This document shows positions 4,101 through 26,687 of a stretch of DNA of 26,791 nucleotides, in pieces (position 1 is the first letter of the stretch; every line of letters starts with the position of its first letter). Position numbers and translations under genes: made by a program. The stretch is from an uncultured virus (IMG/VR IMGVR_UViG_3300035130_000204) (Duplodnaviria > Heunggongvirae > Uroviricota > Caudoviricetes), in the IMG/VR virus record IMGVR_UViG_3300035130_000204; one strand, given 5' to 3'. The notes below the pieces were generated by a model. The model searched no databases. It was given only the letters and a program-made list of their open reading frames with translations, and was not told where the DNA came from.

Positions 4101-4108
4101 GGGCCATC

Positions 4109-7127: not shown

Positions 7128-7137
7128 GAGGCGTCCT

Positions 7138-8804: not shown

Positions 8805-8811
8805 CGACCCC

Positions 8812-11043: not shown

Positions 11044-11052
11044 GAGAACAAC

Positions 11053-11547
11053 ATGGCATTCGGAGATGACAAGTTCTACGGCTGGCAGGGCAAGACGCTG
11101 GTGCTCGACCCTGGCACGTTCGCCTACGACCTTCCGCGCCGAGGTGCGGACTGGCAGGTGCAGTACTTCCCGATGGGCTCCAATGGCAACGGGAACGGCG
11201 TAGTCAGCGAGCTGGAGCAGTCGGGTCAGCACCTGGTCCGTGCCGGCGAGGCCGCTGCTCAGCAGGTGGCTCCTGCCATGAACCCCATCGAGGCGTGGGT
11301 GCGTCAGAACCCGCTCCTCGCGCTCATCGTAGGCGCTGGCGCGGGCGTGCTGCTCTACCGCATGTTGAAGCAGCGGTCGATGCGTGCCAACCCAGACATC
11401 GAGGAGAAGTTCCGCTACCTCATCCGTGGCGGCGCTGCTCGCGACGACGACAATTTCCTCAACCGCGTCTCTGACCTCATGCGCAAGAAATACGGCTACT
11501 CGCAGGGGCAGGTCGAGGAGATGTTCGCAGAAGAGGGCGCGCTGTGA
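11053..11547 (+). CDS. Single-TM protein
   Basis: AGGAGA RBS. PMGSNGNGNG, TM LLALIVGAGAGVLLY, RSMRANP then a small helical domain. Confidence 0.8.
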   Translation: MAFGDDKFYGWQGKTLVLDPGTFAYDLPRRGADWQVQYFPMGSNGNGNGVVSELEQSGQHLVRAGEAAAQQVAPAMNPIEAWVRQNPLLALIVGAGAGVLLYRMLKQRSMRANPDIEEKFRYLIRGGAARDDDNFLNRVSDLMRKKYGYSQGQVEEMFAEEGAL

Positions 11548-12275
11548 GCTACCACGGCATGGGGTCGGCGCCAGTTCTGCCATGTCCAACGAACTGTTGG
11601 CCGCGTCGCAACCCGGACGGAACTTTCGGACCTGAGTGCGACTGCGCCGCCTACGGCCCACCGCCTGGCGGTTCTGCAGCCTCTGAGGAGCTGCGGCGGA
11701 GACAAGCGGAGGCTCTTGCCATGAGAGCCCGTGGACAGGCTTGCCTCGATGCTGGTGGTCGTGAGTTTCGCCATCGCGGGCGCGAGTGCCCTGAAGGATC
11801 GATGTTCGTCAACCAGTTCAACATGGCACCGGCAGGCGTCCGCATGTACGAGCCGGGGGCGATTTGCTGCCAGCCTGCAGCAACCACGCAGTCAGCGACT
11901 ATTTTGATCCCCACGAGCTGCGTCCAGTACCTGCGCGGACTATCGCGAGCCGAGGTGTCATCACTCGCGGCCAGGTGGGCAGGCTATCAGCGCGCAGTGA
12001 CGGCGTGGCGCACGCAGACGATCGATCCAAGCCGCCGCTTGGAGATGGGCGCACGAGGTCCTGCGCCGGTCTTCCAGGGGACGCCGTCGGAGCGCGCTTG
12101 CGCTCGCCATGCAGGCCAGTGGCTCGAGCAGACGCCAGAGCGTCCTTGGTACGCACACCCGGCCGTCATGGTCGCAGGCGCTGCCATCGGAGCCATGACG
12201 CTGTACTCCTGGCTGACGCGGCGCCCCGTAGTACCTAAGGCTGGACCACCTCTGCTGGGAGGACAGCCCCGATGA
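11544..12275 (+). CDS. Cys-rich protein with C-terminal TM anchor
   Basis: GTGA overlap. MSYHGMGS leader, multiple Cys including a CC pair, TM AVMVAGAAIGAMTLYSWL. Confidence 0.75.
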   Translation: MSYHGMGSAPVLPCPTNCWPRRNPDGTFGPECDCAAYGPPPGGSAASEELRRRQAEALAMRARGQACLDAGGREFRHRGRECPEGSMFVNQFNMAPAGVRMYEPGAICCQPAATTQSATILIPTSCVQYLRGLSRAEVSSLAARWAGYQRAVTAWRTQTIDPSRRLEMGARGPAPVFQGTPSERACARHAGQWLEQTPERPWYAHPAVMVAGAAIGAMTLYSWLTRRPVVPKAGPPLLGGQPR

Positions 12276-12841
12276 GCTATGAGCGACCCATGGGCTCAGA
12301 GGTCTACGCTGCCAGTGCCATCGGCTCGAAGATCATGCCGGGCTGGAACGTCCAGCGCATCACGCCAGAGGGTGAGCGCGGTCCGCTGATGCCGACGCCA
12401 AGGCGCTTCGCGGCACCAATCGGAAACGGCCCGGTGCGACCGTACAAGACGCTCTTCGGCCGTGCCATCGGGCCGCAGGGACCCACGGGTCCCGTGACGG
12501 CACTTGGAGACAACGGCGATCGTCCGTTCACACAGCTCGTGATGGGCGCGGTCATTGTTGGCCTCGGATTTTTCGTTCTATTTCGACCGTTGCGCAAAGA
12601 ACGCAATCCCAAGCGCAAGCTCCTAGGGATGTCACCCAAGGGCGAGCGTCTCTTCGGCGAGCTGAATCCTGAGGACATTCGATACATGCACGTCTACGCC
12701 GTGAAGGACGGTCGTGAACGCTACGTCGGCCAGGTGCTCGACACGGGTGGCGCTTACTTTGCCGTGCTTCCATCGGGCAGACAGGTTCACGCTCATACAG
12801 CCAAGGAAGCTGCCGAGGTCCTGGTTGGGATAGGAGTTTGA
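12272..12841 (+). CDS. Single-TM protein with IGPxG repeats and C-terminal beta-beta-beta-alpha domain
   Basis: ATGA overlap. MSYERPMGS, ALGDNG, TM LVMGAVIVGLGFFVLF, RKERNP. Confidence 0.8.
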   Translation: MSYERPMGSEVYAASAIGSKIMPGWNVQRITPEGERGPLMPTPRRFAAPIGNGPVRPYKTLFGRAIGPQGPTGPVTALGDNGDRPFTQLVMGAVIVGLGFFVLFRPLRKERNPKRKLLGMSPKGERLFGELNPEDIRYMHVYAVKDGRERYVGQVLDTGGAYFAVLPSGRQVHAHTAKEAAEVLVGIGV

Positions 12842-12842
12842 G

Positions 12843-13535
12843 ATGAGCTACGAGTCCAAAGGCGCGCCCGTGATGGTCGAGACGACCATGCCAGGACCAG
12901 GCGGAACGATCGAGGCTCGCAACATAGGTCCTCACGGCCCGACAGGTCCGGACCACGTCGTGGATACCGACTACATGCGCGCCATAGGGCCGCATGGAGC
13001 GCAAGGACCGCTGCGACCGATGCCCATGGAATGGGCTCGCGCCATCGGGCCTGGAGGGGGCCAGGGGCCGCTCATCCCGCTCGAGGGTCTCGGCACCATC
13101 GGCGACTTTATCAGTCGCTATCGCACTGCCATGCTGGTTATTGGCGCTGGTGTGCTCGGATGGATGTTCTGGAAGAAGCAAAAGAGTGGCACAGACATAC
13201 TCACGCGAACGACACCCGAGGGCGACGTCGTTCAGGTGCGCCCCTACAAGGCTGTTCGCGAGCAGATCGTCGTTCCACCAGACGTCGTCAAGCGGCCGAC
13301 GGGTGACGCGGACTGGATGCTCTTCGAGTCCGACGTCAAGGATCGCATCAGCGACTTCAGCCTGGGCGTCGTCGGACCGTCGTACAAGACAAAGGGCAAG
13401 TGGACCGCCGATGTGAACGTCGGGTGGGGCGACTTTCTCAACCTGGGCACGTTCGACACCAGCAACGACGCCGTGATCGCGCTCCTCATGGAGTCCGAAG
13501 ACGTGCCGGTCTCGCACCGAAGGCCGATGGAGTAG
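12843..13535 (+). CDS. Single-TM protein with IGPxG repeats and AP2-like C-terminal domain
   Basis: AGGAG RBS. MSYES leader, three IGP[HG]GxxGP units, EGLG, TM AMLVIGAGVLGWMFW, GKWTADV..LGTFDTSNDA. Confidence 0.8.
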   Translation: MSYESKGAPVMVETTMPGPGGTIEARNIGPHGPTGPDHVVDTDYMRAIGPHGAQGPLRPMPMEWARAIGPGGGQGPLIPLEGLGTIGDFISRYRTAMLVIGAGVLGWMFWKKQKSGTDILTRTTPEGDVVQVRPYKAVREQIVVPPDVVKRPTGDADWMLFESDVKDRISDFSLGVVGPSYKTKGKWTADVNVGWGDFLNLGTFDTSNDAVIALLMESEDVPVSHRRPME

Positions 13536-13540
13536 ATGCC

Positions 13541-14116
13541 ATGAGCTACGACTACCAGGGTGCTTACAACAGGGCCATCGGGACGAAGCTGCTTCCGTCC
13601 AAACAGGGCGTATCAGGCGTTCCAGTCTGGGAGCGCGGCCAGTTCACCTACGGAGCTGGACCGTTCGCGCCTGGAGGCCCCGGCGGCGGCATGACCATCG
13701 GCCCCAGCTACACGCAGCCTGGGCCAGCAACAGGACCAGGCTCGTGTCCGCAGGTCAGCGGCGGTCGTCTGGTTTGCGTGCAGGCGCCGATGACCGAGCG
13801 CGGCATGGAGACTGGAAGAGGTTGGCCACCCGAGATCGGCCCGCAAGAAGAGCAGATGATGGAGGTGGGCTGTGTCGCGACTGGTCGCCGATGTGGTGGA
13901 AGTGCTCGTGCTCCTGGTCAGTATTGGTGCTGCCCGTCTTCGGGCGGCATGCCCATGCCGTTCATTGGCACGCCGTTTCCGCACGGGTCGGGAGGACTCG
14001 GAAACAACGGAAGCTCAGGCGCGACAACCCTGAGGGCTCTAGCAATTGGCGTCGTTGGTTTGGCTGCTGCATGGCTTGCCATGAACCTGATCGCAGGGCC
14101 CGCAAGGGACATGTGA
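13541..14116 (+). CDS. Gly/Pro/Cys-rich protein with C-terminal TM anchor
   Basis: GGAG RBS before ATG 13541. MSYDY leader, YWCC, GGLGNNGS, TM ALAIGVVGLAAAWLAM. Confidence 0.75.
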   Translation: MSYDYQGAYNRAIGTKLLPSKQGVSGVPVWERGQFTYGAGPFAPGGPGGGMTIGPSYTQPGPATGPGSCPQVSGGRLVCVQAPMTERGMETGRGWPPEIGPQEEQMMEVGCVATGRRCGGSARAPGQYWCCPSSGGMPMPFIGTPFPHGSGGLGNNGSSGATTLRALAIGVVGLAAAWLAMNLIAGPARDM

Positions 14117-14133
14117 AGGAAAAGAGACGTGTG

Positions 14134-14499
14134 ATGGGATACGAAAGCAACAACGGTTCCGACATCTGTGACTTCGGCTATTGCGATGAGAGCATGGGCG
14201 CTGCCGCAGCTCCACGAGGCGCTGTGCGACTCGGTGCCACAACCTACGGGAGTCTGCGGATCAACGTCTTCGTGCACGGAAGATGGACAACGACCCGATC
14301 ACGGAGTGTCGCTGATTTGGTGACTGTCACAGGCCGCACAGGGCCTGTGTACACCGGCACCGCAGCCACGCTGCCCTACTCGCTGCGTCTGCCCACGGGG
14401 TCGTACACGGTCACAGTGACAGGCATTGGCAAGCCTCGGCGAAGCCAGACGGTTCGCATCAGGCCGAATCGCATGACTTCGGTCAGGTTCTACGTGTAG
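14134..14499 (+). CDS. Small beta-sandwich (PEGA/carboxypeptidase-regulatory-like) protein
   Basis: MGYESNNG leader. GSLRINV, LPTGSYTVTVTG and SQTVRIRPNRMTSVRF follow the PEGA-like strand pattern. The track start at 13744 overlaps the previous gene, so it was moved. Confidence 0.6.
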   Translation: MGYESNNGSDICDFGYCDESMGAAAAPRGAVRLGATTYGSLRINVFVHGRWTTTRSRSVADLVTVTGRTGPVYTGTAATLPYSLRLPTGSYTVTVTGIGKPRRSQTVRIRPNRMTSVRFYV

Positions 14500-14505
14500 A
14501 CGAAC

Positions 14506-15360
14506 ATGCGGAGCCCAGGACAGGTCGGCTTCCTCGCCTCCCCCGATGGCGCACCCCGGCAGGGTGAGACGCCAGACGAGTCTCGTGACTCATCCGCACG
14601 AGAGCAGCTGCCGCTCGCCCTGCCGGGGCCGACCCAGTGGCTGGTTTACGGCGTCCTCGGGCTCGGGGGAGCCTACGTCCTGACCAAGGTTGCTGAGTGG
14701 CTGCTGAATCCTGAGGACGTCGTTCCCAATCCACCCGAGTGCCCGCTGACCAAGTACTCGTTTGGTGGAATTTCGATGGACGATGGCTTTGGGTCGGCAA
14801 CAGAGTACGAGATCGGCGCAAGGCGAATCGTGGATTCTTGCAGCTGCGTTCTTGGCGAGCTTGGCAAGGGGGCGTACTACGCAGATCGCAATCGTGACAA
14901 GGATTGGTTCGTTGCAGCTCGCATATCGACGGCCTACATCGATGAAAAGGTCAAGCTCGTCGTCTATGTACGTCGCGAGTACTCAAAGCAGCTCTACACC
15001 GATCGCATGGTGCCAGCCAGAATCCTTGAGATGGGCTACCACGACCCTGAGCAGGCCATAGAGTCAGCTCGCAAGAGCGTCTACAGCATCCGGCATGCGG
15101 CACCAGCGTTGATTATGCGTTCCGCTGACATGGCTGAAAGGTTGAGTGGCTGCAACTTGCCTGAGCCGGTCCACAACCTTGCGTTCTGGTGTTACGTGGT
15201 GATCGAGTCGCTCGGCGAGTGCATGCTGGACGGCGTAGAGGACTTTCCGGAGAGAGTCAAGGACCCCTTCGGCATGAACCGACTAGCATCCGACGTTTAC
15301 ATGCTCGAGCATGCGACGAAAAAGTTTTTTGCTGCCCAAGAGGCATCGGGGCGACACTAG
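14506..15360 (+). CDS. Single-TM protein with unknown C-terminal globular domain
   Basis: TM WLVYGVLGLGGAYVL followed by LNPEDVVPNP. Fills the gap between neighbours exactly. Confidence 0.7.
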   Translation: MRSPGQVGFLASPDGAPRQGETPDESRDSSAREQLPLALPGPTQWLVYGVLGLGGAYVLTKVAEWLLNPEDVVPNPPECPLTKYSFGGISMDDGFGSATEYEIGARRIVDSCSCVLGELGKGAYYADRNRDKDWFVAARISTAYIDEKVKLVVYVRREYSKQLYTDRMVPARILEMGYHDPEQAIESARKSVYSIRHAAPALIMRSADMAERLSGCNLPEPVHNLAFWCYVVIESLGECMLDGVEDFPERVKDPFGMNRLASDVYMLEHATKKFFAAQEASGRH

Positions 15361-15381
15361 CTACTTAAGGAGTACGTTAAC

Positions 15382-15909
15382 ATGTTTGACGACAACGAGA
15401 ACAACGGCATCTTCAACGGGGCCAGCGGCATTGGCGACACGCCTGAAGAGGCTGCCCAGGAAGCTCAGGTCGAGGAGGCCACCGCCACGACAGGCGCGCA
15501 GCCCATTCCGGCGATGACCAACCAGAACGTGGCCGCCGCGAACCAGAACGTGCAGGTCACCGCCCAAGGTCCCGCATGGTTGGCTCCGATTCTCGGCGTC
15601 GGTCTGCTCGGCATGGGCATCGTGGCCATGGCCATCCCTGTGGCGTTGGGCGCAGCAGGGGCAGCGCTCGCAGCGCCCAAGGGTCAGCGCAAGGAGCGCA
15701 TGCTCGGCGGCGCCCTCATCGGCCTGGGCGCCTCGATGGCAGCCAGCATGCTCGACCCACAGGGTCGCATCCCGATGTTCCGATCGATCGCAGCCTTCGG
15801 TGGCGGCTACACGTACGCGTTCAAGCGGATTCGCGGCGAATGGCCGACTCCAAGCGCCATCAAGGAGGCCCACACGACGCCGGCACCTGCTCTGCCGGCG
15901 CCTCGGTGA
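15382..15909 (+). CDS. Multi-TM glycine/alanine-rich membrane protein
   Basis: AAGGAG RBS. SGIGD motif, long Gly-zipper-like hydrophobic segments, GGGYT. Confidence 0.8.
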   Translation: MFDDNENNGIFNGASGIGDTPEEAAQEAQVEEATATTGAQPIPAMTNQNVAAANQNVQVTAQGPAWLAPILGVGLLGMGIVAMAIPVALGAAGAALAAPKGQRKERMLGGALIGLGASMAASMLDPQGRIPMFRSIAAFGGGYTYAFKRIRGEWPTPSAIKEAHTTPAPALPAPR

Positions 15910-15915
15910 GGCAGC

Positions 15916-16293
15916 ATGAGCTACGAAGCTCCACGGCTGGAACCTTCAGCGGTGCTCGCTGACGATGCCACATGGCCCGAAGCAACGCCACGGTTCATGG
16001 ATTCCGTGCGATGCCTAGGTGAAAGGCCTCACGGCGTGCGCACGCAGCTTCCGCCTGGCGGCTCCACGCCAGAGTACGAGGCTTACGTCGCGCAATGGTT
16101 GACCTCGCACGACTGCGTTCGTCATGTGCCGGTTACGGGCGAGACCGGACGGACATTCTGCTGTCGCGTCGGACCACCGCTGGTTTTTCCATGGGGACCA
16201 GTCATGGCGTTTGGCCTCGGCGGGGTGCTGCTCGCAGCCTGGTACAGCCGTCGTCGTCGCGCAGCTCTTGAAGAGGCACTGGAGGAGTCCTGA
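15916..16293 (+). CDS. Small Cys-containing protein with C-terminal TM anchor
   Basis: GAGG RBS. MSYEA leader, TFCC, TM VMAFGLGGVLLAAWY followed by RRRR. Confidence 0.75.
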   Translation: MSYEAPRLEPSAVLADDATWPEATPRFMDSVRCLGERPHGVRTQLPPGGSTPEYEAYVAQWLTSHDCVRHVPVTGETGRTFCCRVGPPLVFPWGPVMAFGLGGVLLAAWYSRRRRAALEEALEES

Positions 16294-17060
16294 TGTCTTA
16301 CGATTTCGTAGACCGAGGGGACATGTGGTTCGGCCACGTCTTCGATGTATACGAAGGCGATGACTGGATCGGCGGCGTGATGCAGGGAAAGCAAAACCCA
16401 AGATGGAGCGCCGTCACGCCTTCCGGTGCAAGCGCAGAGTCCCTGCCCTTTGCAACGCGAGAGGAGGGCGCCTGCTGGCTCGATGCTCAAGGCGTTCGAG
16501 TACCCAAGACGAAGAAGTGGCGCTATTCACCGCCTATATACGCCGTTCTCGGGCCGGTCGAGCCGGCCATGGGCAACAACGGATCGGCAACGCCATCGAT
16601 AGCAAGCCGGACGATCGTGGCTTCGCAAGACGCCATCGAACGCGATGCTGGCGAGCCAGAAGATCCAGACATCGTCGACGACCGATGGGAAGCAGCAGGC
16701 GAGGAGCTGCAACACGCGCTGCGGATCTTCCAGCGAAGAACGTGGGAAGACCCTTACGCCATTTTCCTTGCGATCACTGTCGGAGCTGCGCTGGCTCCGG
16801 CAGCCATTGCTGGTGGCATCGCAGGACGCCGAGAAGATGCGACTGCAAAAGGCGTCGCTGTGGGACTCGGAGCCGCTGCAGCCACGGCGCTGCTCATGAA
16901 CCCAGTAAGCGTTTTGATCACGGGGCGTCGTAACGCAATTCCACAGGCGATCATGCACATCGGCGGAGGCTACACGCCGTTCGTTCTCGCGCTTCTCGCT
17001 TCTGCTGGGGTTGGATACGGCGCTTCGTTCCTGGCAACGAGAGACACGGAGACACCATGA
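16293..17060 (+). CDS. Membrane protein: N-terminal beta-beta-beta-alpha domain plus multi-TM domain
   Basis: GGAGGAG RBS and TGATG overlap. MSYDF leader, AMGNNGS, three hydrophobic segments, GGGYT. Confidence 0.8.
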   Translation: MSYDFVDRGDMWFGHVFDVYEGDDWIGGVMQGKQNPRWSAVTPSGASAESLPFATREEGACWLDAQGVRVPKTKKWRYSPPIYAVLGPVEPAMGNNGSATPSIASRTIVASQDAIERDAGEPEDPDIVDDRWEAAGEELQHALRIFQRRTWEDPYAIFLAITVGAALAPAAIAGGIAGRREDATAKGVAVGLGAAAATALLMNPVSVLITGRRNAIPQAIMHIGGGYTPFVLALLASAGVGYGASFLATRDTETP

Positions 17061-17587
17061 GCTACGCCCAGGTCACCCGCGGCAAGCATCTGTTCGGGGG
17101 CGTCTACGAAACGCTCGTCGACGGTGAGGTCATCGGCGTCACAAAGCAAGGGCGCAACAACCCATGGTGGACCCCAGGGGTCAGACCAACCTTGGGTTCC
17201 ATAGAAGACTGGACGCGAAACCCTTTCCGGCTGGCAGTGGTGGTCGCCGTGGGCATCGCAGGGGTGGCAGTGATTACCGAAATGGCCAAGGTGTTCCGCT
17301 TCAAGCGGCGTGTTTACGTCAATCCGTTGAGCGTCTCCGATGCACGAAATCTAGGGCGGATGCTTGGCGTCAACTGGGAATCTGTCGACTACGGACCGGC
17401 ACAGCTGCGTGCCGGCATACTCGTGGAGCAAGAGCACGGGCCTGGTGGCCCGGCTGGAATGATGGGTGATGTCACACACGGTGATACGCTGGAGACGGCC
17501 AAGATAGCGCTGGCGCACCTCGAGGAGCTGCCCGACTACTATATCCGGCTCGCCGAGATGGAAGCACGGGGCGAGTGCGAGGTCTGA
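17057..17587 (+). CDS. Single-TM protein with C-terminal DUF5661-like domain
   Basis: QLRAGILVEQEHG..DVTHGD..TAKIALAHLEELPDYYIRLAEME matches the DUF5661 pattern as I recall it. TM LAVVVAVGIAGVAVI, then YVNP. Confidence 0.8.
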   Translation: MSYAQVTRGKHLFGGVYETLVDGEVIGVTKQGRNNPWWTPGVRPTLGSIEDWTRNPFRLAVVVAVGIAGVAVITEMAKVFRFKRRVYVNPLSVSDARNLGRMLGVNWESVDYGPAQLRAGILVEQEHGPGGPAGMMGDVTHGDTLETAKIALAHLEELPDYYIRLAEMEARGECEV

Positions 17588-17590
17588 GCG

Positions 17591-18931
17591 ATGAAGGACT
17601 CGACCACAAGAGCAGTCACCTGGCTCGACAACTACTCCATTATCCGCGAGTTCGGCGCCTCGAAGTACGCCGCGCAGCAGTGGATGGACGCGAGCAGCGA
17701 CAGCATCCAGGGTGCACTGGTTCAGGCTTCACGTGAAGAGATGGCAGCGGCCTCTGATGAGGCGCGTCTTCGCGACAAGGCGATCGGCCGTACAGTCGGT
17801 GACACCGTCATGGCCATCGGTGCCTCTGTATTCACTGCCGTCGGTGCTACCGGAGTTGGTGCCATCGTCGGCGCCGTCATCGCAGCTGTCGGAGGCATCA
17901 TCAGCGGCCTAACGGAGCTGTTCACGGTCGAGTGTGACGAGTGGGACTGCCCTTGGCCCAAGAGCTTCCACCGTCGCGGCATCGTAGGCGTCGACATCGG
18001 CCGCGTCGATGAGGGTTTTCACCTGCTCGACGACGACAAGCGGTGCATGTACTTCCACCGTCGCTGCACGCTGTACGGATACTTCCATGACGGCCAGATG
18101 ATCGACGGGATCTCCAAGGACCCTGACAACCCGAACGTCACGGGTCGTGTCGTCGGTTGCAACGGCAGCCGTGTCGGCAAGTACTCGCGGCCAATCCGCG
18201 ATGCTTGGATGCGTCACAGCTCGAATCCTCAGGACGTGCCCAAGGGCAGCATCGGCTCGCCGTGGAACGACCCACCGACGACCCGCGCTCACCGCGGCTG
18301 GAAGGTCAGCTGGGTGCTGTACTGGCTTCGCGACAAGATGCCCTGCCGCATCCTCAGCTGCATGGAGGAGATCCTCAAGAACACACAGCGAGGAGACAAG
18401 GACGCCAGCAAGTTCGACGCGCAACGACGTCGAGGTGGCCGTTGGTACGCCTCGATCGTCTGGATGATGAACGACGTATGGGAGATCGGTCAGTCGATCG
18501 GCTCTGAGCGCTTCGAGCAGGTGCTTCGCTCCCAGGGGCAGGACAATGCTGCCGATGTCGTCAAGCGGATCAGGACCGAGCAGCTGGTCTTCGAGCCTGA
18601 GGACCTGCCGTTCCCCTTCTGGCCTGTGATGCGCCACTGCTCCTGGGAGGGACTGCGCAAGACGCTCATCGCCATGAAGCCGATGATTCCGGCCGAGGGC
18701 CCCTGGGCAGGAACGCAACCCGAGGGAGAGCAGCGACGAGTAGTCAAGGTTGGCCTCGCACCGATGATGCCTCGTCGCGTGGTCCCGCTAATTTTCGACC
18801 CCAAGCGGCTGCGGCCAATACCCGCGAAGACAGGTTCGAGGCTTCCCGAGTGGCCTGTTCTGGTTGCAGGAGGCGCTGCAGCCGTCATCGGCGCTGTCGC
18901 TATTTTTCAGGCGCTCAAGAAGAAGGACTAG
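17591..18931 (+). CDS. Cys-rich protein with N-proximal hydrophobic hairpin and C-terminal TM anchor
   Basis: VMAIGASVFTAVGATGVGAIVGAVIAAVGGIISGL, several Cys, WPVLVAGGAAAVIGAVAIF-KKKD. Confidence 0.8.
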   Translation: MKDSTTRAVTWLDNYSIIREFGASKYAAQQWMDASSDSIQGALVQASREEMAAASDEARLRDKAIGRTVGDTVMAIGASVFTAVGATGVGAIVGAVIAAVGGIISGLTELFTVECDEWDCPWPKSFHRRGIVGVDIGRVDEGFHLLDDDKRCMYFHRRCTLYGYFHDGQMIDGISKDPDNPNVTGRVVGCNGSRVGKYSRPIRDAWMRHSSNPQDVPKGSIGSPWNDPPTTRAHRGWKVSWVLYWLRDKMPCRILSCMEEILKNTQRGDKDASKFDAQRRRGGRWYASIVWMMNDVWEIGQSIGSERFEQVLRSQGQDNAADVVKRIRTEQLVFEPEDLPFPFWPVMRHCSWEGLRKTLIAMKPMIPAEGPWAGTQPEGEQRRVVKVGLAPMMPRRVVPLIFDPKRLRPIPAKTGSRLPEWPVLVAGGAAAVIGAVAIFQALKKKD

Positions 18932-18934
18932 GGC

Positions 18935-19558
18935 ATGTACGAGTACGACATCCGTGGCCTTGGCCAGGCAGAGCAACCGCAAAGCGGAGCGGCTGCCAGC
19001 GAGGCGCTCACTTGGATCATCGACACGCCCATAGGTCCAAGAAAACGCGTCGGCATGCACATCGTAGGCCCTAGCGGCTTGCGCCACACCTGCCACTGCT
19101 ACGAAGAGCTTCCTCGCGACATGGTCGCTGCGATTGCCAGACCGTACGCGCTCGAGTTCACGACGGGGTTCTTCGGCAAGAAGTACGAATGCGGATGCGA
19201 GCCTGTCTGGGCATGGTGTCCCGAGGAGATTCGCCCGATCCCTGCTGCGCCAGGCTTTGCAAAGAAAAAGAAGCAGTGCGAGGCGTACAAGCAGCGAGCC
19301 AAGGCGAAGCTGCCCGAGTCCTACAAGGACGTCGAGGATGAGGGGTTTCGGCTGGCAATCGCCCAGAACCTCGGCCGTGCTGCAGGCCTGACCGAGGACC
19401 AGGTGTCTCGGCTCAAGCCAGCCGAGTTCCTGACGGTCGCAGAGGAGAAGTCGCGCCGTGCGGCTGGCATCTGGACCTTGAGCGCTATCACTGTTGCTGC
19501 AGGTGGCGGCTACCTGCTGTGGAGTTTCCTGCGCAGTCGAAAGAAGGCGAAACCATGA
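18935..19558 (+). CDS. Cys-containing protein with C-terminal TM anchor
   Basis: AAGGA upstream. MYEYDIRGLGQ leader (cf. 6129), CHC and CGC motifs, TM IWTLSAITVAAGGGYLLWSFL. Confidence 0.8.
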   Translation: MYEYDIRGLGQAEQPQSGAAASEALTWIIDTPIGPRKRVGMHIVGPSGLRHTCHCYEELPRDMVAAIARPYALEFTTGFFGKKYECGCEPVWAWCPEEIRPIPAAPGFAKKKKQCEAYKQRAKAKLPESYKDVEDEGFRLAIAQNLGRAAGLTEDQVSRLKPAEFLTVAEEKSRRAAGIWTLSAITVAAGGGYLLWSFLRSRKKAKP

Positions 19559-19794
19559 GGTACGAGAGGTACGAGCGGGCCACGTACGGCCCTGGTGACA
19601 TCGCAGCGCTTCCGCCGACCATCGGGCTGACCTCGAGGCGTCCGACGATTGGCTCTGAGGATGCGGGTCGTCCCATTCCGTCGATCCTCGACAGCATGGG
19701 AAACAACAACGGACAGACTGGCAGCTCCAATCCTTGGCTGCTGCCGCTCGGCATCGGGCTCGCCGTTGGCGGCCTGATTTTTCTGGCAAGGTAG
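19555..19794 (+). CDS. Small C-terminal-TM protein, paralog of 19811..20086
   Basis: ATGA overlap. YGPGDIAALP..GLT..PTIGS, SMGNNNG, TM WLLPLGIGLAVGGLIFL. Confidence 0.75.
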   Translation: MRYERYERATYGPGDIAALPPTIGLTSRRPTIGSEDAGRPIPSILDSMGNNNGQTGSSNPWLLPLGIGLAVGGLIFLAR

Positions 19795-19810
19795 CCAGAG
19801 GGAGAACGTC

Positions 19811-20086
<276 letters not shown>

Positions 20087-20295
20087 GTGATGGGTCAGGT
20101 CGGTGTCGCCCCGTGGGCTATCGCATCGTCGAGAGCTATGGAACGCTTCCAGAGGCGCGAGAATACGTCGCTGAGGAGTTCGGACTTCCTCGTCCTGTTC
20201 CCGCTGTCACGGTACTTCCAGCGCTAACGCCCAAGGTCACGCCCAAGCAGCCGTATCTTCGTACGGTGAGCGTCTTCTATCCTCAGGAGAATCAG

Positions 20296-21780
20296 ATGGG
20301 ATACGAATACGAGCAGGCCCTCGTCGGCGTCGACGAGGTCGATGGGACCAGCTACTATTCAACAACTGATACGCCCGGCTGGCCTGCGCCGATTCCCATG
20401 GCCGACAACGGCGAGCAAGCGATCGAGCAAGCTGCTTCTGTTCAGCCCTGGCATCAGCGAATGCCCTGGTGGGGTTGGGCAGCGGCTGGCGCTGGTCTCT
20501 TCGGGTTGTTTCACGTACTGAGGACAAAGCCACTGGTGCGAAACCCTGAAGACGAAGAAGTTGCAGCTATCGACGATGGGCCAGATGAGCAAAGGCTTAC
20601 CGATATGCAGGCAGCTCAGCAGGCCGCAGCCATCTCTGCAGAAGCAGGACTACCTGTTATCCTGTGGGGACCTCCTGGCATAGGCAAGACCGCATGGGTC
20701 GAAGCGCTTGGCAAGACCTTGAGAGCCAAGGTCATCACCGTCATCGGCTCCACTCGTGACCCGACCGACATTGCTGGAACACTCACGCCATCGGGGGATC
20801 TGATCCCTCCGTCGTGGGCTCGAGAAACCCAGGAGCGATCCAGAGCTGGCAAAAAGACCTTGCTGTTTCTCGATGAGTTCTCGTCGATGAGCCCGCTCGT
20901 CCATGCTGCACTGCTTCGCGTTGTCCGTGACAAGATTGCGGGCGACGCGCTGCTAGACCCTGCAGGCACACCGTGCAGGCCGAGTATCCGTGACCGCGGT
21001 TGCGTCTACATCGTCATGGCCGCCAACCGTCCCGAGGAAGGCGCCGGTGCGCTCGAGCTTCCGCCTCCGGCCGCCAACCGCATCGTTCACATCTTCTGGC
21101 CGCGTCCCGACATTGGTGAATGGATCAAAGGCCTGACGCTGGGCTGGGATACGCTCACGATCAGGATTCCAAAGCTTCCGGAGAACTGGAAGCAGACGAA
21201 GGAAGCCAAGCAGGCCTACGCCACCATCGCGGCCTACGTCCAGAAGTCCCAGATGCTCCTTGACATGCCTCAGACCGAAGCCGAGGCTGGCTACGCATGG
21301 CCCTCACCGCGGTCGTGGGAGCTTGCCGCCGAAGGTTACGCTGCGGCCGTAGTGGTCGGAGCGCCCAGAAAGGTGCAGCGGCTCATCGTTGCAGGAGCGG
21401 TCGGCGAGGGACAGGCACTGCAGTTCATGAACTTCTCGGTGCTCAAAGATCTTCCCGATCCAGAAAAGATGCTCAAAGCACCGACTAACTGGAAGGTGCC
21501 TGACACGCCGGACAAGCTCTACCTTGCGCTTTCATCGATGGTCTTCGCCATGATGCGAGACCACTCGCGGCAAAAGTTTGTCAACGCATGGAAGGCCTAC
21601 GCCTATGCCATAAACGAGCGTCCTCAGGATATACCGACCGCCACCCCTGCCATGTACCCTGCAGTCGAGCTGTTCCAAGAGTACCCGATGGCGCCCGTCA
21701 TGAAGGATGTCGGTCCAGAGAACATGAAGCCCTTCGTCAAGATGATGAAGAAAGCCGGCCTGATTCCCAGCACGAAGTAG
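20296..21780 (+). CDS. MoxR-like AAA+ ATPase (AAA_5 type) with N-terminal leader and TM anchor
   Basis: Walker A GPPGIGKT (20668-20691), Walker B LLFLDE, MAAN sensor 1, PAANR arginine finger, WPSPRSWE. AGGAGA RBS before ATG 20296. The frame is also open from GTG 20113. Confidence 0.9.
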   Translation: MGYEYEQALVGVDEVDGTSYYSTTDTPGWPAPIPMADNGEQAIEQAASVQPWHQRMPWWGWAAAGAGLFGLFHVLRTKPLVRNPEDEEVAAIDDGPDEQRLTDMQAAQQAAAISAEAGLPVILWGPPGIGKTAWVEALGKTLRAKVITVIGSTRDPTDIAGTLTPSGDLIPPSWARETQERSRAGKKTLLFLDEFSSMSPLVHAALLRVVRDKIAGDALLDPAGTPCRPSIRDRGCVYIVMAANRPEEGAGALELPPPAANRIVHIFWPRPDIGEWIKGLTLGWDTLTIRIPKLPENWKQTKEAKQAYATIAAYVQKSQMLLDMPQTEAEAGYAWPSPRSWELAAEGYAAAVVVGAPRKVQRLIVAGAVGEGQALQFMNFSVLKDLPDPEKMLKAPTNWKVPDTPDKLYLALSSMVFAMMRDHSRQKFVNAWKAYAYAINERPQDIPTATPAMYPAVELFQEYPMAPVMKDVGPENMKPFVKMMKKAGLIPSTK

Positions 21781-21798
21781 TTCATCGGAGGCTTTGTC

Positions 21799-23289
21799 AT
21801 GCACGACTATCCGCCTCGCCCGTATCTCGCAAACCCCCAGCCTTCAGCAGAGGTGCTCGAATACCTGCAAGCAGCAAGGATGTACCTGGTTGCACCCAAG
21901 CAGAGGCCGTACCTCGCTGTCCCGGCATTCAAGTTCGAGTACATCGCAACCGAGCGTATCGACACTGCCGCTGTAGATTCGAGCTGGCGTTTCTACTACA
22001 ACGAGGAATACGTCCTGCAGGCCGCAACCGACCCGCAGCTCGGTGGAATTCCATCGATCGCTGCGGTCACCGAGCACGAGCTATGGCACTTGCTGCGAAA
22101 GCACGCTGACCGAGCCGCCGCTGCAGGGGCTGTTACCAAGGCTCAGCTGAAGCTTTTCAACTGGGCAGCCGACATCGAGATCCACTCGGACGAGGCCCTG
22201 GCCAACGCCATTCGCACAACTGGCATAGAGCCGTTGACGCCACAATACTTCAACTTCGAGCCTCATAAGCTCGCCGAGGTGTACTACGCAAAGCTGCTCG
22301 AAAAAATATCCGACCATGGCGAGGACGAGGGTGGCGAATACATCGAGATCGAAGTCGAGGCCCCCAAGGATGCAATGCCACCAGGCGCGCCGCCCCCTCC
22401 AAGCGAAGCACAACGACCAGGTCCCTCTGGTGGCATCGGCGAAGACGGCGAGAAGGGCGACCGCGAAAAGGTCACAATAAAGGTCTACGTTGACCCTGAA
22501 GAGCCAACCGTGGGCGCTGGCGACTGCGGATCTGCCGCTACTGGAGAACCGGCGCCGTGGGAGGAGGCCCCATCAGGGCGCGTTTCGGACGACGAGGCCG
22601 ACATGGCCAGGGCTCAAGTCGCCCAGAGCATCGAAGAGTGGATGAAGCAAGGTGCGCCAGGCATGGGCACACAGGCCTACGACGGCATCATCGAGTGGTC
22701 AAAGAACCTCCTTCACCCGAAGGTGCCTTGGCAGCAGGTGCTCCGTTCCGCATTGCGTAGCGCAGTCGCCTGGGTTTCTGGCCAAACGGAGTATTCCAAG
22801 CGACGCTTCTCTCGTCGCCAATCTGCTATGCCTCACGTCGTTCTTCCTGGCATGGTCCACCCGGTACCTGAGATTGCAGTAGTCATGGACGCCTCAGGCT
22901 CGATGTTCATCCAGGGAGAGCGCGCATCGTTGTTCGAGGAGGCCGTCAGCGAGGTTGCTGGCATACTCAAGAAGTTTGGAAGCACCATTGGCGTAACCGT
23001 ATACAGCGTCGATGCTGCTGTTGGCTGGGCATCGCGTGTATACAGCGCCAGTCAGCTGCGCGGCATCGGAGGTGGCGGTACGAACATGGGCATCGGGATC
23101 GAAGCAGCCGCCAAAGCCAGGCCCAAGCCGCAGGTTATCGTTGTCGTTACCGACGGTGAAACCCCGTGGCCCGAGCGAGGACCACACGGGATCAAGACGG
23201 TCATTGCCATCGTCGGCAACAAAGACCACGTCATCAACTACGGCGATCCACCTCCTCCTTGGGCATGGAAGGTCATCTGGGTGGACTAA
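21799..23289 (+). CDS. DUF2201-like protein: putative HExxH metallopeptidase plus VWA domain
   Basis: RPYLA, TAAVD, HELWH..RKH, FNWAADIEI, acidic/Pro linker, CGSAATG, VPWQQVL, MIDAS DASGS, GGGGT, VTDG. GGAGG RBS. This is the usual partner of this ATPase type. Confidence 0.9.
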   Translation: MHDYPPRPYLANPQPSAEVLEYLQAARMYLVAPKQRPYLAVPAFKFEYIATERIDTAAVDSSWRFYYNEEYVLQAATDPQLGGIPSIAAVTEHELWHLLRKHADRAAAAGAVTKAQLKLFNWAADIEIHSDEALANAIRTTGIEPLTPQYFNFEPHKLAEVYYAKLLEKISDHGEDEGGEYIEIEVEAPKDAMPPGAPPPPSEAQRPGPSGGIGEDGEKGDREKVTIKVYVDPEEPTVGAGDCGSAATGEPAPWEEAPSGRVSDDEADMARAQVAQSIEEWMKQGAPGMGTQAYDGIIEWSKNLLHPKVPWQQVLRSALRSAVAWVSGQTEYSKRRFSRRQSAMPHVVLPGMVHPVPEIAVVMDASGSMFIQGERASLFEEAVSEVAGILKKFGSTIGVTVYSVDAAVGWASRVYSASQLRGIGGGGTNMGIGIEAAAKARPKPQVIVVVTDGETPWPERGPHGIKTVIAIVGNKDHVINYGDPPPPWAWKVIWVD

Positions 23290-23290: not shown

Positions 23291-23959
23291 ATGTCGCGTA
23301 GCCGCATCGTAGCCACCACACAGATCGCGTGCAGCGGCGAAAATCACACGCTATTGGTCGACGCCAACGGCAAGCTGATTCTGCCAGATCACGACGTCGA
23401 CCTCGAGCGTAGCCTTGCCGCTTTGGGCGCCGAGCTTCCGGCATGCATAGTTATGCTCGACCACTGGAAGGCGGAAAGATACCAAGAGCTTACCCTGCCA
23501 CTGCGGCAAGCCGTGTTTCGTGTCAACAAGCGCTACATCGATAAACTGCGAACCGCCATCGACCTTGCAGATTACAGAAAACCGTCTACGCGCTGGGTCG
23601 ATCGTGCTGGTGTCGAAGTCACAATATCTCTGGCCAGCTGGCGTCCCAGCATTGATGGCGAGTCACAGAAGGTATGGGACACAAAACGGTCCTATTCAGG
23701 CACCTTTTTGGATATCAAGGTCCGGCTGGTTTTGTCGCGCTACAGATATATGCTAAAAACATTCAAAAACGGCCTAATACGCGATGCGAAAGGCAAAGAC
23801 TGGGTCGTCCTTTCGATGCGCAAGGAAAAAAAAGGTTCTCCGAACCTGTTCGTTCGCGCCGGACGCCAGGGGCGCGGTCTATCGATTTTTACTGCTCAAG
23901 CTCTCGCTGTTCCCGACAAAGACGCACCGAACGGCTACATCCTCAAAAAGTGGCTTTAG
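23291..23959 (+). CDS. C-H-H-C-tag protein 1, basic C-terminal domain
   Basis: ATG 23291 directly follows the upstream TAA. CSGENH..HDVDLERSLAALGAELPAC. Confidence 0.8.
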   Translation: MSRSRIVATTQIACSGENHTLLVDANGKLILPDHDVDLERSLAALGAELPACIVMLDHWKAERYQELTLPLRQAVFRVNKRYIDKLRTAIDLADYRKPSTRWVDRAGVEVTISLASWRPSIDGESQKVWDTKRSYSGTFLDIKVRLVLSRYRYMLKTFKNGLIRDAKGKDWVVLSMRKEKKGSPNLFVRAGRQGRGLSIFTAQALAVPDKDAPNGYILKKWL

Positions 23960-23962
23960 CCC

Positions 23963-24721
23963 ATGGCCTTCACCTTCCCCTCCTGGTGCTCGAACGAGAT
24001 CCACAAACTCGTTGTTACGCGAGACGGCCGCATGGTCTCTCACGAAAACACGCACGACTTCGATCTGGAGATCGCACTCGCCGAGATGGGAGCCGAGCTG
24101 ACCCACTGCACATGGCACTATCAACGGTGGCTTGCCAACCCGCTCGACTGGGTGCAGGGACCTCTGTTTAATGCTCTTGTCTTTGATGAATACCGAGGAA
24201 AACTCAAGTCTGGACAACGCAAGTCTCAATATCCAATTTTCGCAGACATTTTGAACATCCACTGGCCACCAAGAGACTTCAAATTTCTATCAGGTCTAAT
24301 TCTGCTCGATATGGCACAGCACGCGGTTGCTCAGCTGAGCGATGATGACTACGACATGGACGTCGTCATGCGCCCTATCCGCAGCGCACGTAAGGCTTAC
24401 TCCGACACCAAAGCTAGCCGCGACGTGGTTTTTCACCGTGCGTGTCTTTCGGAGATGTTCAACAGACGGGGGAAGTTCTACGAGAAAAAGATACAAAAGC
24501 GGGACGCCAAAGACAAGGCGATCGTCGACTTTGTCCTTGCCAGTACTGACTGGGCGAGCGGGGGCTATCTCTTTTTCACTGGCGCGAGAACTCTCGACGT
24601 GCTTTACAAAGATTTTCTCCAGCTCGGCAACGCAAAACAACAAGACGCTTGGCTGCGCAGGCGTATTGCTCGTGTCCTACAAAGCCTTACGGACGATCAA
24701 CAATGGCCGTCGATATCCTAG
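23963..24721 (+). CDS. C-H-H-C-tag protein 2, divergent Imm5-like helical C-terminus
   Basis: CSNEIH..HDFDLEIALAEMGAELTHC, LLDMAQHAV..PIRSARK, AWLRRR..WPS. Confidence 0.8.
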   Translation: MAFTFPSWCSNEIHKLVVTRDGRMVSHENTHDFDLEIALAEMGAELTHCTWHYQRWLANPLDWVQGPLFNALVFDEYRGKLKSGQRKSQYPIFADILNIHWPPRDFKFLSGLILLDMAQHAVAQLSDDDYDMDVVMRPIRSARKAYSDTKASRDVVFHRACLSEMFNRRGKFYEKKIQKRDAKDKAIVDFVLASTDWASGGYLFFTGARTLDVLYKDFLQLGNAKQQDAWLRRRIARVLQSLTDDQQWPSIS

Positions 24722-25485
24722 TCGAATGCGGCGAAGAGGAGCACCTGGTTCGTCTACTTCCGGACGACGTCGTCTGGCCCGACGGGTCTCACGACGTAGA
24801 CCTCGAGGAAGCTCTCGTCGAAATGGGGGCTCCACGCTGTCAATGCTTGGTGCTCCGCCGCGCCTGGCTGGGGCTACGAAAGAGCTGGGTCTTTCAGCGC
24901 GTCGAACCTTTCCCTAGAATCGCACCTTTTGCCCCATTGTCAGAAGTTGCATACACGGGACGTGCATCTGCCTACAAGCGTAACGAAGCTCTTGCCCTGC
25001 TGCTAGCCGACTTTTTGGAGCACGCGCTGCAACAGCTGTCTAACCCGCCGGAGCAACTCATTCCGGCCTACGCCGTCATAACTAATGTGCGCAACCAGGT
25101 ATTCCATCGACAGACAACCTCGACGGCTTCGTTGCGCACGGCCACTGCTGCTGCACGCCGCGCGGCAGAAGCTCATATATCAACATCGCCTTCGATATGC
25201 GCAGCAGAGGCCGCGTACCGTGCTGCCAACCAGATTGGATTGTTCATGATAGACGCTTTGTCTCAACGCCACGTGCCCGTACTTCACAAATTGGTGGCGC
25301 ATCAAGGGGCGCCCCCTCTTGCCCATCGTAATATTCTGAGCGCCCTGTGGCACCAAGCACGCACGAAGGGCACAGCGCTCGATCTCCTGCGCCGCCATCT
25401 CATAGCCGAAACCATCTGGCAACGACATCACGCGCTCCGTGTCTACGAGGCGATGATCGAGGGAAAGCCATGGCCGTCTACGTAA
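24703..25485 (+). CDS. C-H-H-C-tag protein 3, Imm5-like helical C-terminus
   Basis: CGEEEH..HDVDLEEALVEMGAPRCQC, LADFLEHAL, Ala-rich helix, ETIWQ..WPS. Start set by alignment with paralogs. Confidence 0.8.
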   Translation: MAVDILVECGEEEHLVRLLPDDVVWPDGSHDVDLEEALVEMGAPRCQCLVLRRAWLGLRKSWVFQRVEPFPRIAPFAPLSEVAYTGRASAYKRNEALALLLADFLEHALQQLSNPPEQLIPAYAVITNVRNQVFHRQTTSTASLRTATAAARRAAEAHISTSPSICAAEAAYRAANQIGLFMIDALSQRHVPVLHKLVAHQGAPPLAHRNILSALWHQARTKGTALDLLRRHLIAETIWQRHHALRVYEAMIEGKPWPST

Positions 25486-26687
25486 CAATCGACTGCTGCG
25501 ACGAAAAACACACTATCGGTCTCGCGGCTGGCAAGCGCGTCATAACTGACCCCGCCGCGCACGACTTCGATCTTGAGCTAAGCCTGGTAGAGATGGGCGC
25601 CGAACCATGCCCGTGTATAAGGTACTGGCAAAATTTTTCGGATAGCGCAGAACTAGCAATGTCAGCTCTGTGGCATTACAAGCGCGGTCACCGCTGGCTG
25701 GAGATAGCGAAGCTTGGCCAATATATAGTCGAGCAGGTTGGCGCAGAGCAAGCAGCAAAAAAGCTTTACGAGGATATCGACTACGGCGAGCACGTAGACG
25801 AAGCCGTCGCTGCCCTGCTTGAGAGAGCAAAGCGCGACGACACCGTAGACATGGGATACTGGGGCGACCGCGACGATCAGCGCATCGTAGATAGCATCGT
25901 TGGCGAGCTACAGGAAGCTATCAACGACGAGAACGCGTACCTCGCTATGGAACTTGTTGTACTTTTGGGCGACTTGTTCCCCAAGGTAGACCCATGGGAG
26001 ATGGACGTTCACGAAGAAGAGTACGACAACGGCCTCGAAGGCGGCGTAACACTTATGTCCGAACGCACTCTTAAATTTTTCGACCGCGACATAGCAGAGT
26101 GGACAAGAGCCTTTGAAAAACGCTACTTCGACGAGATCTACTTTCATTCGTGGGACGAAGTCGAGGATCTATGCGAAGCCTCGCCTGACTACTGCACGCC
26201 AGAGGCGCTGGGTGTCGTTTTGTTTTTTTTGGGCTTCGACGAAGACGAAGAGCCAGAGGTCTCCGAGCCTTACCTAGATGCGCGCCCATGCGCGCCAGCT
26301 GAGGCCGCCGCATGTGAGTACGGCGTTTTGTACGAGCCTGATCTTTCCAACCCCTACATGGGCGGAGCCGAGTGGCGAGAGACGACCGTCGCAGCCTACG
26401 ATACCTACGAGGAATCGCTCAAGGGCATAGAGCAGTCGCAGCAGCTGTCCGACCTGCGCGGTGACGGCAACCTGTACGTCATGACTCCCGTACGGCGTGT
26501 CTCCGAAAAGAAGCTTGCCCAAGCCGTTCGGCGCGTCGAAGAGGAGCGCAAGAACTGGAAGCTGTTCGGCGTCGACGTTGTTCCAGAGCTGACCGACCTC
26601 GACTACCTGAAGCTCCAGTGGCAACCGTGGGACGACCACCTCGAGGAGATGCTGCAGGACGACCTGCTGCCCGAGGAGGAGCTGTGA
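25470..26687 (+). CDS. C-H-H-C-tag protein 4, long acidic C-terminus
   Basis: CCDEKH..HDFDLELSLVEMGAEPCPC. Start set by alignment with paralogs. Confidence 0.8.
   Translation: MAVYVTIDCCDEKHTIGLAAGKRVITDPAAHDFDLELSLVEMGAEPCPCIRYWQNFSDSAELAMSALWHYKRGHRWLEIAKLGQYIVEQVGAEQAAKKLYEDIDYGEHVDEAVAALLERAKRDDTVDMGYWGDRDDQRIVDSIVGELQEAINDENAYLAMELVVLLGDLFPKVDPWEMDVHEEEYDNGLEGGVTLMSERTLKFFDRDIAEWTRAFEKRYFDEIYFHSWDEVEDLCEASPDYCTPEALGVVLFFLGFDEDEEPEVSEPYLDARPCAPAEAAACEYGVLYEPDLSNPYMGGAEWRETTVAAYDTYEESLKGIEQSQQLSDLRGDGNLYVMTPVRRVSEKKLAQAVRRVEEERKNWKLFGVDVVPELTDLDYLKLQWQPWDDHLEEMLQDDLLPEEEL

Follow-up and report, generated by a model that had tools for sequence, protein, structure and literature searches.

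A phage MoxR-like ATPase with a predicted N-terminal membrane anchor and a DUF2201 partner beside a block of unannotated membrane-protein genes

The ATPase and its partner

The 26,791-nucleotide (nt) stretch of DNA analyzed here, which we call the window (IMG/VR record IMGVR_UViG_3300035130_000204, an uncultured virus placed in Caudoviricetes), encodes at positions 20,296 to 23,289 an AAA+ ATPase and, directly after it, a protein that combines an HExxH domain with a von Willebrand factor A (VWA) domain. A first-pass annotation had described a MoxR-type ATPase bearing a structural-protein leader, a transmembrane (TM) anchor and an Asn-Pro (NP) site, and had suggested that the pair was recruited into a membrane or packaging pathway, where it might be loaded into particles or serve as an assembly or processing machine. 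The observation is confirmed and the interpretation is partly supported. New here is an anchor-bearing, clade-defining form of a phage MoxR-like ATPase, with a DUF2201 partner, in an unannotated block of membrane-protein genes. The features at the locus are listed below, with ATPase residues counted from the ATG at 20296.

20296..21780, + strand: ATPase of the MoxR/AAA_5 kind with predicted anchor, 494 amino acids (aa) from ATG 20296
20113-21780, + strand: longest form of the ATPase open reading frame (ORF), from a GTG, 555 aa
20113..20295, + strand: 61 in-frame codons upstream of the ATG that has Shine-Dalgarno support, a possible N-terminal extension of the 555-aa isoform
20285..20289, + strand: Shine-Dalgarno-like AGGAG, 6 nt upstream of ATG 20296, read from the sequence
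20296..20313, + strand: MGYEYE, a start motif of the form M(x)Y[E/D] common to 11 of 33 window genes
20395..20412, + strand: PMADNG (aa 34-39), of the [MLA][GA][DNST]NG type found before the helix in 7 window proteins
20467..20520, + strand: probable TM helix W58-L75 with a Trp belt and a Gly/Ala-rich core, from hydrophobicity, AlphaFold2 and conservation
20521..20547, + strand: basic patch RTKPLVR followed by N83-P84 (NP at 20542-20547), the NP invariant
20668..20691, + strand: Walker A, GPPGIGKT (aa 125-132), with G125, P127, G128, G130 and K131 invariant in 24 aligned sequences
20863..20877, + strand: Walker B, LFLDE (aa 190-194), with L190-E194 invariant in the same 24
21799..23289, + strand: partner, DUF2201_N (zincin-like HExxH) plus DUF2201 VWA, from Pfam and PHROG
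21832..21837, + strand: N12-P13 in the N-terminal extension of the partner, from an alignment of partners
22075..22089, + strand: HELWH, the HExxH motif of the partner (aa 93-97), with E94 nearly invariant and H102 invariant
22855..23286, + strand: VWA domain with a complete metal ion-dependent adhesion site (MIDAS; D364-x-S366-x-S368, T428, D452), these columns invariant in 22 aligned sequences

All elements that the first-pass annotation had named in the ATPase, from MGYEYE and PMADNG through the helix and LVRNP to an intact AAA+ core, are present. Pfam recognized AAA (8.3e-7) and AAA_5 (1e-5; 26.0 bits against a cut-off of 22) in residues 120-248, both above cut-off, and phrog_1297 matched residues 103-427 at 1.8e-45. 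The profile bpMoxR was not listed for this protein; it was precomputed for many short homologs and matched the second ATPase of the related metagenome locus L034 at 2.8e-5, below cut-off. NCBIfam gave no match near its cut-offs and PADLOC only faint AAA matches. A single-sequence search of solved structures returned generic AAA matches only for the ATPase, and a family profile searched against solved structures matched midasin best (5.8e-10). An AlphaFold2 model has a mean predicted local distance difference test score (pLDDT) of 74.8 overall and about 90 in the core; its top fold matches were NorQ (Z 13.3, root-mean-square deviation (rmsd) 3.4, 158 aligned residues) and the MoxR protein CHU_0153 (Z 13.3, rmsd 4.3, 233 aligned). 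"MoxR/AAA_5 kind" is a fair label for this protein, but the profile and fold scores fall short of showing strict MoxR membership. N244 and R262 are also invariant in the 24 aligned sequences and stand where sensor 1 and the arginine finger are expected, which we presume to be their roles by position rather than by structural superposition. With both Walker motifs, N244 and R262 invariant, the ATPase looks active.

Ahead of the core, the best 17-residue Kyte-Doolittle mean in W58-L75 is 1.28, and homologs reach 2.1. AlphaFold2 places a helix at residues 58-77 with pLDDT of about 50-58 and leaves residues 1-56 disordered. In an alignment (A1) of 24 long forms of the ATPase, G65, N83 and P84 do not vary, and W58 and G67 hardly do. 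The tail before the helix has a net charge of -8 and three Lys/Arg residues lie directly after it, a pattern that under the positive-inside rule suggests an N-out/C-in orientation. From helix and flanking charges we infer a single-pass membrane protein with its N-terminus out and its C-terminus in. The core appears to follow the membrane closely: from helix to core start there are about 12-15 residues in most relatives and about 27 in the window ATPase, in which an acidic insertion brings the distance from NP to Walker A to 42 aa. The model begins a short helix at residue 85, and the linker that contains the NP is of low confidence. Most long-form relatives (P0006-P0050 in the same alignment) carry a G(L/M)G.I.PS.A..F repeat, in one to four copies, in the outer tail. 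Most also have a conserved cysteine pair, IE.C..G.C, ahead of the helix; both cysteines are lost in the window ATPase.

The partner gene begins 18 nt past the ATPase stop codon, with GGAGG 8-12 nt before its ATG. Its product matched DUF2201_N (1.6e-23; 84.1 bits against 23.2) and DUF2201 (2.4e-11; 44.3 bits against 26.4), both above cut-off, as well as phrog_1314 (3.5e-43), and it lacks a hydrophobic helix outside its fold. The fold of its VWA domain is closest to BatB and CLCA1 (Z 14.2, rmsd about 2.4 over 134-140 residues), followed by the VWA domain of NorD (Z 12.6). This domain filled both fold-search lists, in which the N-terminal domain was hardly sampled. A single-sequence search of solved structures gave no match for the partner, and the sole peptidase match of its profile against them was a weak one to an M48 entry (E 0.089). 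The HExxH motif is degenerate in 5 of 22 aligned partners (P0130, P0135, P0137, P0138 and P0141), and by its Pfam name and motif the domain is a putative peptidase-like one.

As first annotated, the partner has an MHDY start, a YLANP segment (ANP at residues 11-13) and the HExxH and VWA domains. An NP within about the first 35 aligned residues occurs in the window partner, in P0122-P0125 and P0129, and in the partners of L033, L034 and L038. Extensions in the clade with anchored ATPases read, for example, MIRVINP or MAIRVMNP; distant partners lack an NP extension and start at a conserved AAR...RPYLA block. As to the suspicion that the RPYLANP of the partner duplicates its own RPYLAVP, the RPYLANP form is peculiar to this protein (RPYVQNP stands in P0122, MIRVINP in other relatives). 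NP itself is conserved in the partners of the clade.

Gene start, clade and gene order

Most M(x)Y[E/D] starts in the window, the ATG at 20296 among them, have a GGAG-type motif ahead of them; no Shine-Dalgarno motif was found before GTG 20113. The start at 20296 agrees with the N-terminus of distant relatives, and in L033 an MSYE start lies three codons past a stop. The segment 20113-20295 is open in the ATPase frame only, with guanine-plus-cytosine (GC) fractions by codon position of 0.705/0.443/0.59; given this coding-like pattern and the single open frame, the 61 upstream codons are plausibly coding. Their products are identical to the three nearest relatives (P0003, P0004 and P0005) at 56/61, 49/61 and 48/61 residues (92%, 80% and 79%), above the 35/57, 29/57 and 29/57 (61%, 51% and 51%) of the tail after 20296. 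Products of 494 and 555 aa are both plausible, and MGYEYE may be internal within the longer isoform. Because both forms include the helix, initiation downstream of it is very unlikely.

The stretch is present in wetland metagenome runs, and no RNA dataset was listed as containing it. A contig of 150,791 nt is listed for the ATPase. Contigs from four wetland runs are nearly identical to the window and give no codon-position signal for 20113-20295. They differ from it only by an insertion (net +3) at 20322-20327, present in one run, and at 21501, where T reads as G in one contig of X5. A -1 frameshift from gene 19811-20086 into the ATPase frame was considered and dropped: inspection by eye, without a pattern search, found no canonical slippery heptamer just ahead of the stop of that gene, and what the ATPase frame encodes upstream of 20113 looks like an Arg-rich off-frame of gene 19811-20086.

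A large protein collection contained 712 homologs of the ATPase, of which the best 120 are listed; 116 of these have a Walker A motif. We call them short if Walker A falls at residues 14-34 (about 360 aa in all) and long if it falls at residue 35 or later, which divides the 116 into 61 short and 55 long, anchored forms. All 55 listed long forms, two of them cut at the N-terminus, have NP upstream of Walker A; 51 have an aromatic RPWWxW-type motif before the Gly-rich helix and NP, and 25 have an M(S)YE start. NP lies 27-32 aa ahead of Walker A in 49 of the 55 and exactly 28 aa ahead in 30. The residue after it is E in 22, G in 9, D in 8 and various in the rest (E or D in 30/55). In a maximum-likelihood tree of the core only, taken from 17 aa before Walker A (116 rows, 387 columns), a single branch splits long from short forms with a Shimodaira-Hasegawa-like approximate likelihood ratio (SH-aLRT) of 100, so the anchor was gained or lost once among these sequences. 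The predicted anchor module is conserved and clade-defining, and is not unique to this genome.

In a tblastn search of 50,697 phage records, 51 matched, all at 27% identity or less and each starting at query residue 118 or later; the anchor is therefore absent from all 51 cultured-phage matches. Neither IMG/VR nor 185,579 species genomes yielded a relative covering it. The uniqueness proposed for the first ~85 residues in the first-pass annotation holds against these 51 matches and the 61 short homologs, but 55 of the 116 listed homologs share the module. That annotation had also looked to cellular homologs with the same anchor as evidence against recruitment. Homologs with the anchor do occur, but they belong to the same syntenic, uncultured group rather than to demonstrated cellular genomes.

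A metagenome scan found eleven loci (L033-L039, L041-L044) that match upstream of query residue 60, and a further one, L040, in which the ATPase is cut at the contig end. Gene order is kept at 40-48% ATPase identity in L033, L034, L037, L038 and L042: a DUF5661 protein, then a large protein with several helices, small proteins that have a helix near the C-terminus, one or two anchored ATPases, and the DUF2201_N/DUF2201 partner. The contig of L042 ends before the partner position, and the other four carry the partner. Three loci have two anchored ATPases in tandem, each with helix and NP (L033 8309-11551, L034 8184-11302 and L042 8109-11461); the window has one only.

Neighboring genes and the nature of the element

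The leader-like start and the order of helix, basic patch and NP are common to genes around the ATPase, as had been noted at first pass. The eleven window genes with M(x)Y[E/D] starts are those at 6129, 8427, 12272, 12843, 13541, 14134, 15916, 16293, 18935, 19555 and 20296, and near-variant starts occur at 7138, 11544 and 17057. This is an excess both over composition (binomial P 9e-16) and over internal Met positions (4/228; P 7e-12). Since the S, Y, E and D codons of the motif vary, the constraint acts on the protein. A hydrophobic segment is present in 20 of the 21 listed genes between 6129 and 21780. Among single-helix proteins with more than 25 aa after the helix, 9 of 11 have NP within 30 aa after it; the exceptions are gene 12843, which lacks it, and gene 19555, in which NP directly precedes the helix. 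Window proteins contain 31 NP dipeptides where about 13 are expected (2.3-fold over), and 12 of the 31 fall within the 45 residues that follow a hydrophobic segment, a zone that holds 10% of positions (P 3.5e-5).

The window has a GC content of about 0.6, all its long non-nested ORFs lie on the + strand, and stop/start overlaps are frequent. Searches of 31 window ORFs and 60 ORFs of five related loci with Pfam and PHROG detected no capsid, portal or terminase family, and nothing supports the word "structural" in the originally proposed leader. We call the element phage-like because of gene layout and PHROG matches only, hallmark virus genes having not been found.

The block itself (6129-20086) comprises about 20 genes, nearly all helix-bearing and with no family match except DUF5661. 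Many of its proteins are anchored near the C-terminus and end just past the basic patch (genes at 11544, 13541, 15916, 17591, 18935 and 19811). The small gene 19555-19794, missed by a 120-aa ORF list, has an MRYERYE start at an ATGA overlap with the previous stop, an MGNNNG motif, and NP immediately before its C-terminal helix. Within gene 19811-20086, positions 19958-19995 are a low-complexity segment coding for a GNGNGNG run. Contig depth there rises to about 53 in the wetland runs, with many loose ends; the excess probably reflects matches to unrelated sequences. The DUF5661 domain (2.4e-15) is encoded by window gene 17057-17587, C-terminal to a helix/basic patch/NP module, and in relatives at L034 2-316 and L042 608-2758. 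A literature search returned no mention of DUF5661 or PF18905.

Modification genes lie just upstream of the block (698-5697), among them two to three GT2-type glycosyltransferases, one Methyltransf_24 gene and a tandem pair of Sulfotransfer_3-like genes (3357-4100 and 4109-4909; 1.6e-6 and 1.7e-6). Several [ML]G[DNST]NG motifs read N-G-S/T, and acidic Tyr motifs mark the gene starts; the block proteins may be glycosylated or sulfated. For tyrosine sulfation, a search of solved structures gave only the CurM sulfotransferase (E 0.049) and pyoverdine synthetase F (E 0.085), and no tyrosylprotein sulfotransferase. Downstream of the partner are tandem paralogs, four in the window (23291-26687), at least eight in L034 (13703-21083) and others in L033 (13800-21447). 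In these proteins an N-terminal hydrophobic strand that closes with Cys leads into a conserved pattern, E.H...H.(F/D)DLE..L.E.GA....C. They matched no family, and ESM Atlas gave no usable lead (best feature score 0.79).

Proposed role, alternatives and known systems

We propose, at about even odds (roughly 0.5), that the pair assembles or remodels co-encoded membrane proteins of a phage-like element. The acidic N-terminal tail would lie outside, the Gly/Ala-rich, Trp-belted helix would span the membrane, and the basic patch and NP would sit at its cytoplasmic face. The AAA+ ring would hang by a short linker just under the membrane, in a geometry like that of FtsH. The adjacent partner would be cytoplasmic, its VWA domain binding clients or the ring through the MIDAS and serving as an adaptor as in NorQ-NorD, RavA-ViaA and p618-p892 from Acidianus two-tailed virus (ATV); its zincin-like HExxH domain may trim clients. 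Co-encoded membrane proteins, about 20 in all, are the probable clients; the M(x)Y[E/D] start, Gly-rich helix, basic patch and NP recur in many of them. Together, ATPase and partner would assemble or remodel a membrane-protein complex. Architecture, conservation, pairing and shared motifs are observed directly; for clients and any proteolysis, as for insertion and topology, the proposal goes beyond them.

Several results weigh against this proposal. The ATPase scores 18.8 with Pfam AAA_3, the profile of MoxR proper, under the cut-off of 27, and its fold scores are practically tied, with BchI at 13.2, dynein modules at 13.0, RavA at 12.7 and MCM at 12.6, all within 1 Z of the top matches. The helix is of moderate hydrophobicity (1.28) and modeled at a pLDDT of only about 50-58, and the conserved 61 upstream codons make the true N-terminus ambiguous. 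A profile of the helix-to-NP region of 52 long ATPases finds non-ATPase genes weakly (best 11053-11547, E 1.4e-4 among 1808 ORFs), and P0007, when its first 104 aa served as query, retrieved five proteins, all ATPases; the weak matches of the neighbors point to shared style more than to clear homology. Hallmark virus genes were missing from the 31 window and 60 related-locus ORFs. In cultured phages the pair is soluble and lies among non-structural genes, namely dCTP deaminase in Zuri and Hsp20 and thymidylate synthase in S-TIM5, and its ancestral role may be unrelated to membrane proteins.

An unlikely reading, though the likeliest of the alternatives, is that the pair shares its function with the soluble phrog_1297/phrog_1314 pair of N4-like and other phages, such as host takeover or replication-linked chaperoning, that the anchor only localizes it, and that the neighbors are not clients. 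Among cultured phages the pair occurs widely (51 records), in Zuri and S-TIM5 it lies among metabolic or early-type genes, and the shared motifs may be a general membrane-protein style of the genome rather than a functional link. Against this, the order of membrane-protein block, ATPase(s) and partner is kept in all five syntenic loci at 40-48% ATPase identity (the partner falling past the contig end in L042), and partners gained the NP extension together with the anchored ATPase.

It is rather improbable that NP is a processing site and the M(x)Y[E/D] tail, helix and basic patch a removable targeting module. A cut at or next to N83-P84, by the HExxH domain of the partner or by Asn self-cleavage, would leave a soluble ATPase of about short-form size, and the C-terminal domains of neighboring proteins would be freed likewise. 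The invariant NP does lie where anchor and core meet, with the short forms starting 6-10 aa further on, the same order of helix, basic patch and NP precedes unrelated C-terminal domains in 9 of 11 neighbors, and an N-terminal NP occurs in partners of the anchored clade as well. In the 31 window ORFs Pfam finds no peptidase-like domain other than the HExxH one, and the first-pass annotation was right to single out HELWH as the only candidate protease, putative as the domain is. Self-cleavage at Asn-Pro occurs in switch proteins of type III secretion systems, at an NPTH motif, and in reovirus mu1. None of the 55 listed long forms has T-H after NP, however, and the NPTH motif is not matched. NP also directly precedes helices in the genes at 8812, 11053, 17057 and 19555 and is 2.3-fold over-represented overall. 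NP with an acidic residue behind it makes a classical helix N-cap; with E or D next in 30 of 55 long forms and a short modeled helix from residue 85, the motif reads equally well in that way. The fixed 28-aa spacing to Walker A suggests that NP is part of the ATPase fold, and the HExxH motif is degenerate in 5 of 22 partners, whose sole peptidase profile match is the M48 entry at E 0.089.

A broader version, which we regard as a long shot, is a sorting-and-processing code in which an acidic Tyr start, Gly-zipper helix, basic patch and NP tag about 15 proteins. The anchored ring and the zincin-VWA protein would then form a split FtsH-like machine that recognizes NP and releases or assembles cargo domains, including its own ATPase and the partner N-terminus.

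We give little credence to a non-viral origin, namely a cellular island (of Planctomycetota, for example) that would code for a membrane or envelope assembly system. One relative, P0025, is labeled as from a Planctomycetota metagenome-assembled genome, relatives sit on contigs of up to 269,630 nt, IMG/VR lacks a close relative, and capsid, portal and terminase families were not detected in the ORFs scanned. However, the main ORFs all lie on one strand with overlapping stops and starts, PHROGs are the best family matches, the 185,579 species genomes gave no relative covering the anchor, and metagenome bins often take in viral contigs. Finally, an untranslated anchor, with a start past the helix (such as the Met of TDMQAAQQ, an in-frame ATG at residue 104 of the 494-aa form) and an ordinary soluble MoxR as product, is very unlikely, since the intervening region shows protein-level conservation throughout the clade (G65, N83 and P84 do not vary), a good Shine-Dalgarno motif precedes 20296, the MSYE start of L033 lies three codons after a stop, and the insertion at 20322-20327 in the variant contig keeps the frame (net +3).

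For few of the widespread MoxR-VWA pairs are clients known, and no function has been assigned to the phage ATPase/DUF2201 pair. An ATPase with a predicted membrane tether, encoded beside some 20 motif-sharing membrane proteins, provides a concrete candidate client set, and the anchor marks a syntenic clade of large environmental genomes (contigs of up to about 270 kb) whose genes are almost entirely unannotated. A full-text literature search, subscription journals aside, found no report of a transmembrane-anchored MoxR ATPase among the papers listed.

Phages are known to carry an ATPase/DUF2201 pair, catalogued as phrog_1297/phrog_1314. Examples are Pseudomonas phage Zuri (Schitoviridae; gp42/gp44) and cyanophage S-TIM5 (gp057/gp056), in which an AAA/AAA_5 ATPase is followed by a DUF2201_N plus DUF2201 VWA protein. 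Both PHROG profiles are matched by adjacent genes in the window, and the two phages show the same adjacency; Zuri, like L034, has a small gene between ATPase and partner. The two phage partners are annotated as "HNH endonuclease", and Pfam instead finds DUF2201_N and DUF2201. Unlike the window ATPase, those of Zuri (348 aa) and S-TIM5 (331 aa) have Walker A near the N-terminus and neither helix nor NP.

Among cellular systems, NorQ-NorD, RavA-ViaA, CbbQ-CbbO and CoxD-CoxE resemble the window pair in joining an ATPase of matching AAA+ fold (NorQ Z 13.3, RavA 12.7, CbbQ 12.3) to an adjacent VWA partner with a MIDAS. The ATPases NorQ, RavA, CbbQ and CoxD are described as soluble, and the partners NorD, ViaA, CbbO and CoxE are not known to have an HExxH domain. 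The window ATPase differs further from these in scoring below cut-off with AAA_3. FtsH combines an AAA+ ring, fixed to the cytoplasmic side of the membrane by an N-terminal anchor, with an HExxH domain. There, however, the protease is fused in cis, the ring belongs to the classical AAA clade, the anchor has two helices and VWA domains are absent; in the window, the HExxH domain (putatively a protease) is on a separate protein, and the nearest folds of the ATPase are MoxR, chelatase and dynein.

The pair p618/p892 of ATV is a virus-encoded pair of a MoxR and a VWA protein, and p618 is presented in the accounts of it as a major virion component with a chaperone role in tail development (PMC4124505; also PMC7159879), which offers a precedent for such a viral pair at work in virion morphogenesis. 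ATV is an archaeal virus, and the passages of these sources that deal with p618 and p892 describe neither a membrane anchor nor an HExxH domain. Bat/BB0172 operons also place a MoxR ATPase beside VWA partners, and BatB is among the top fold matches of the window VWA domain (Z 14.2); according to PMC5700661 and the titles of the matching structure entries, the VWA-domain proteins are the membrane proteins in these operons. In iSTAND ternary systems, which likewise join a MoxR ATPase to membrane-associated VWA partners, N-terminal TM segments occur in about 28% of examples; they are reported where the vWA component is described, although the wording there is just "examples of this system" (PMC7159879). 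The window reverses the arrangement of Bat/BB0172, and apparently that of iSTAND, in that the predicted anchor is on the ATPase and not on the VWA protein.

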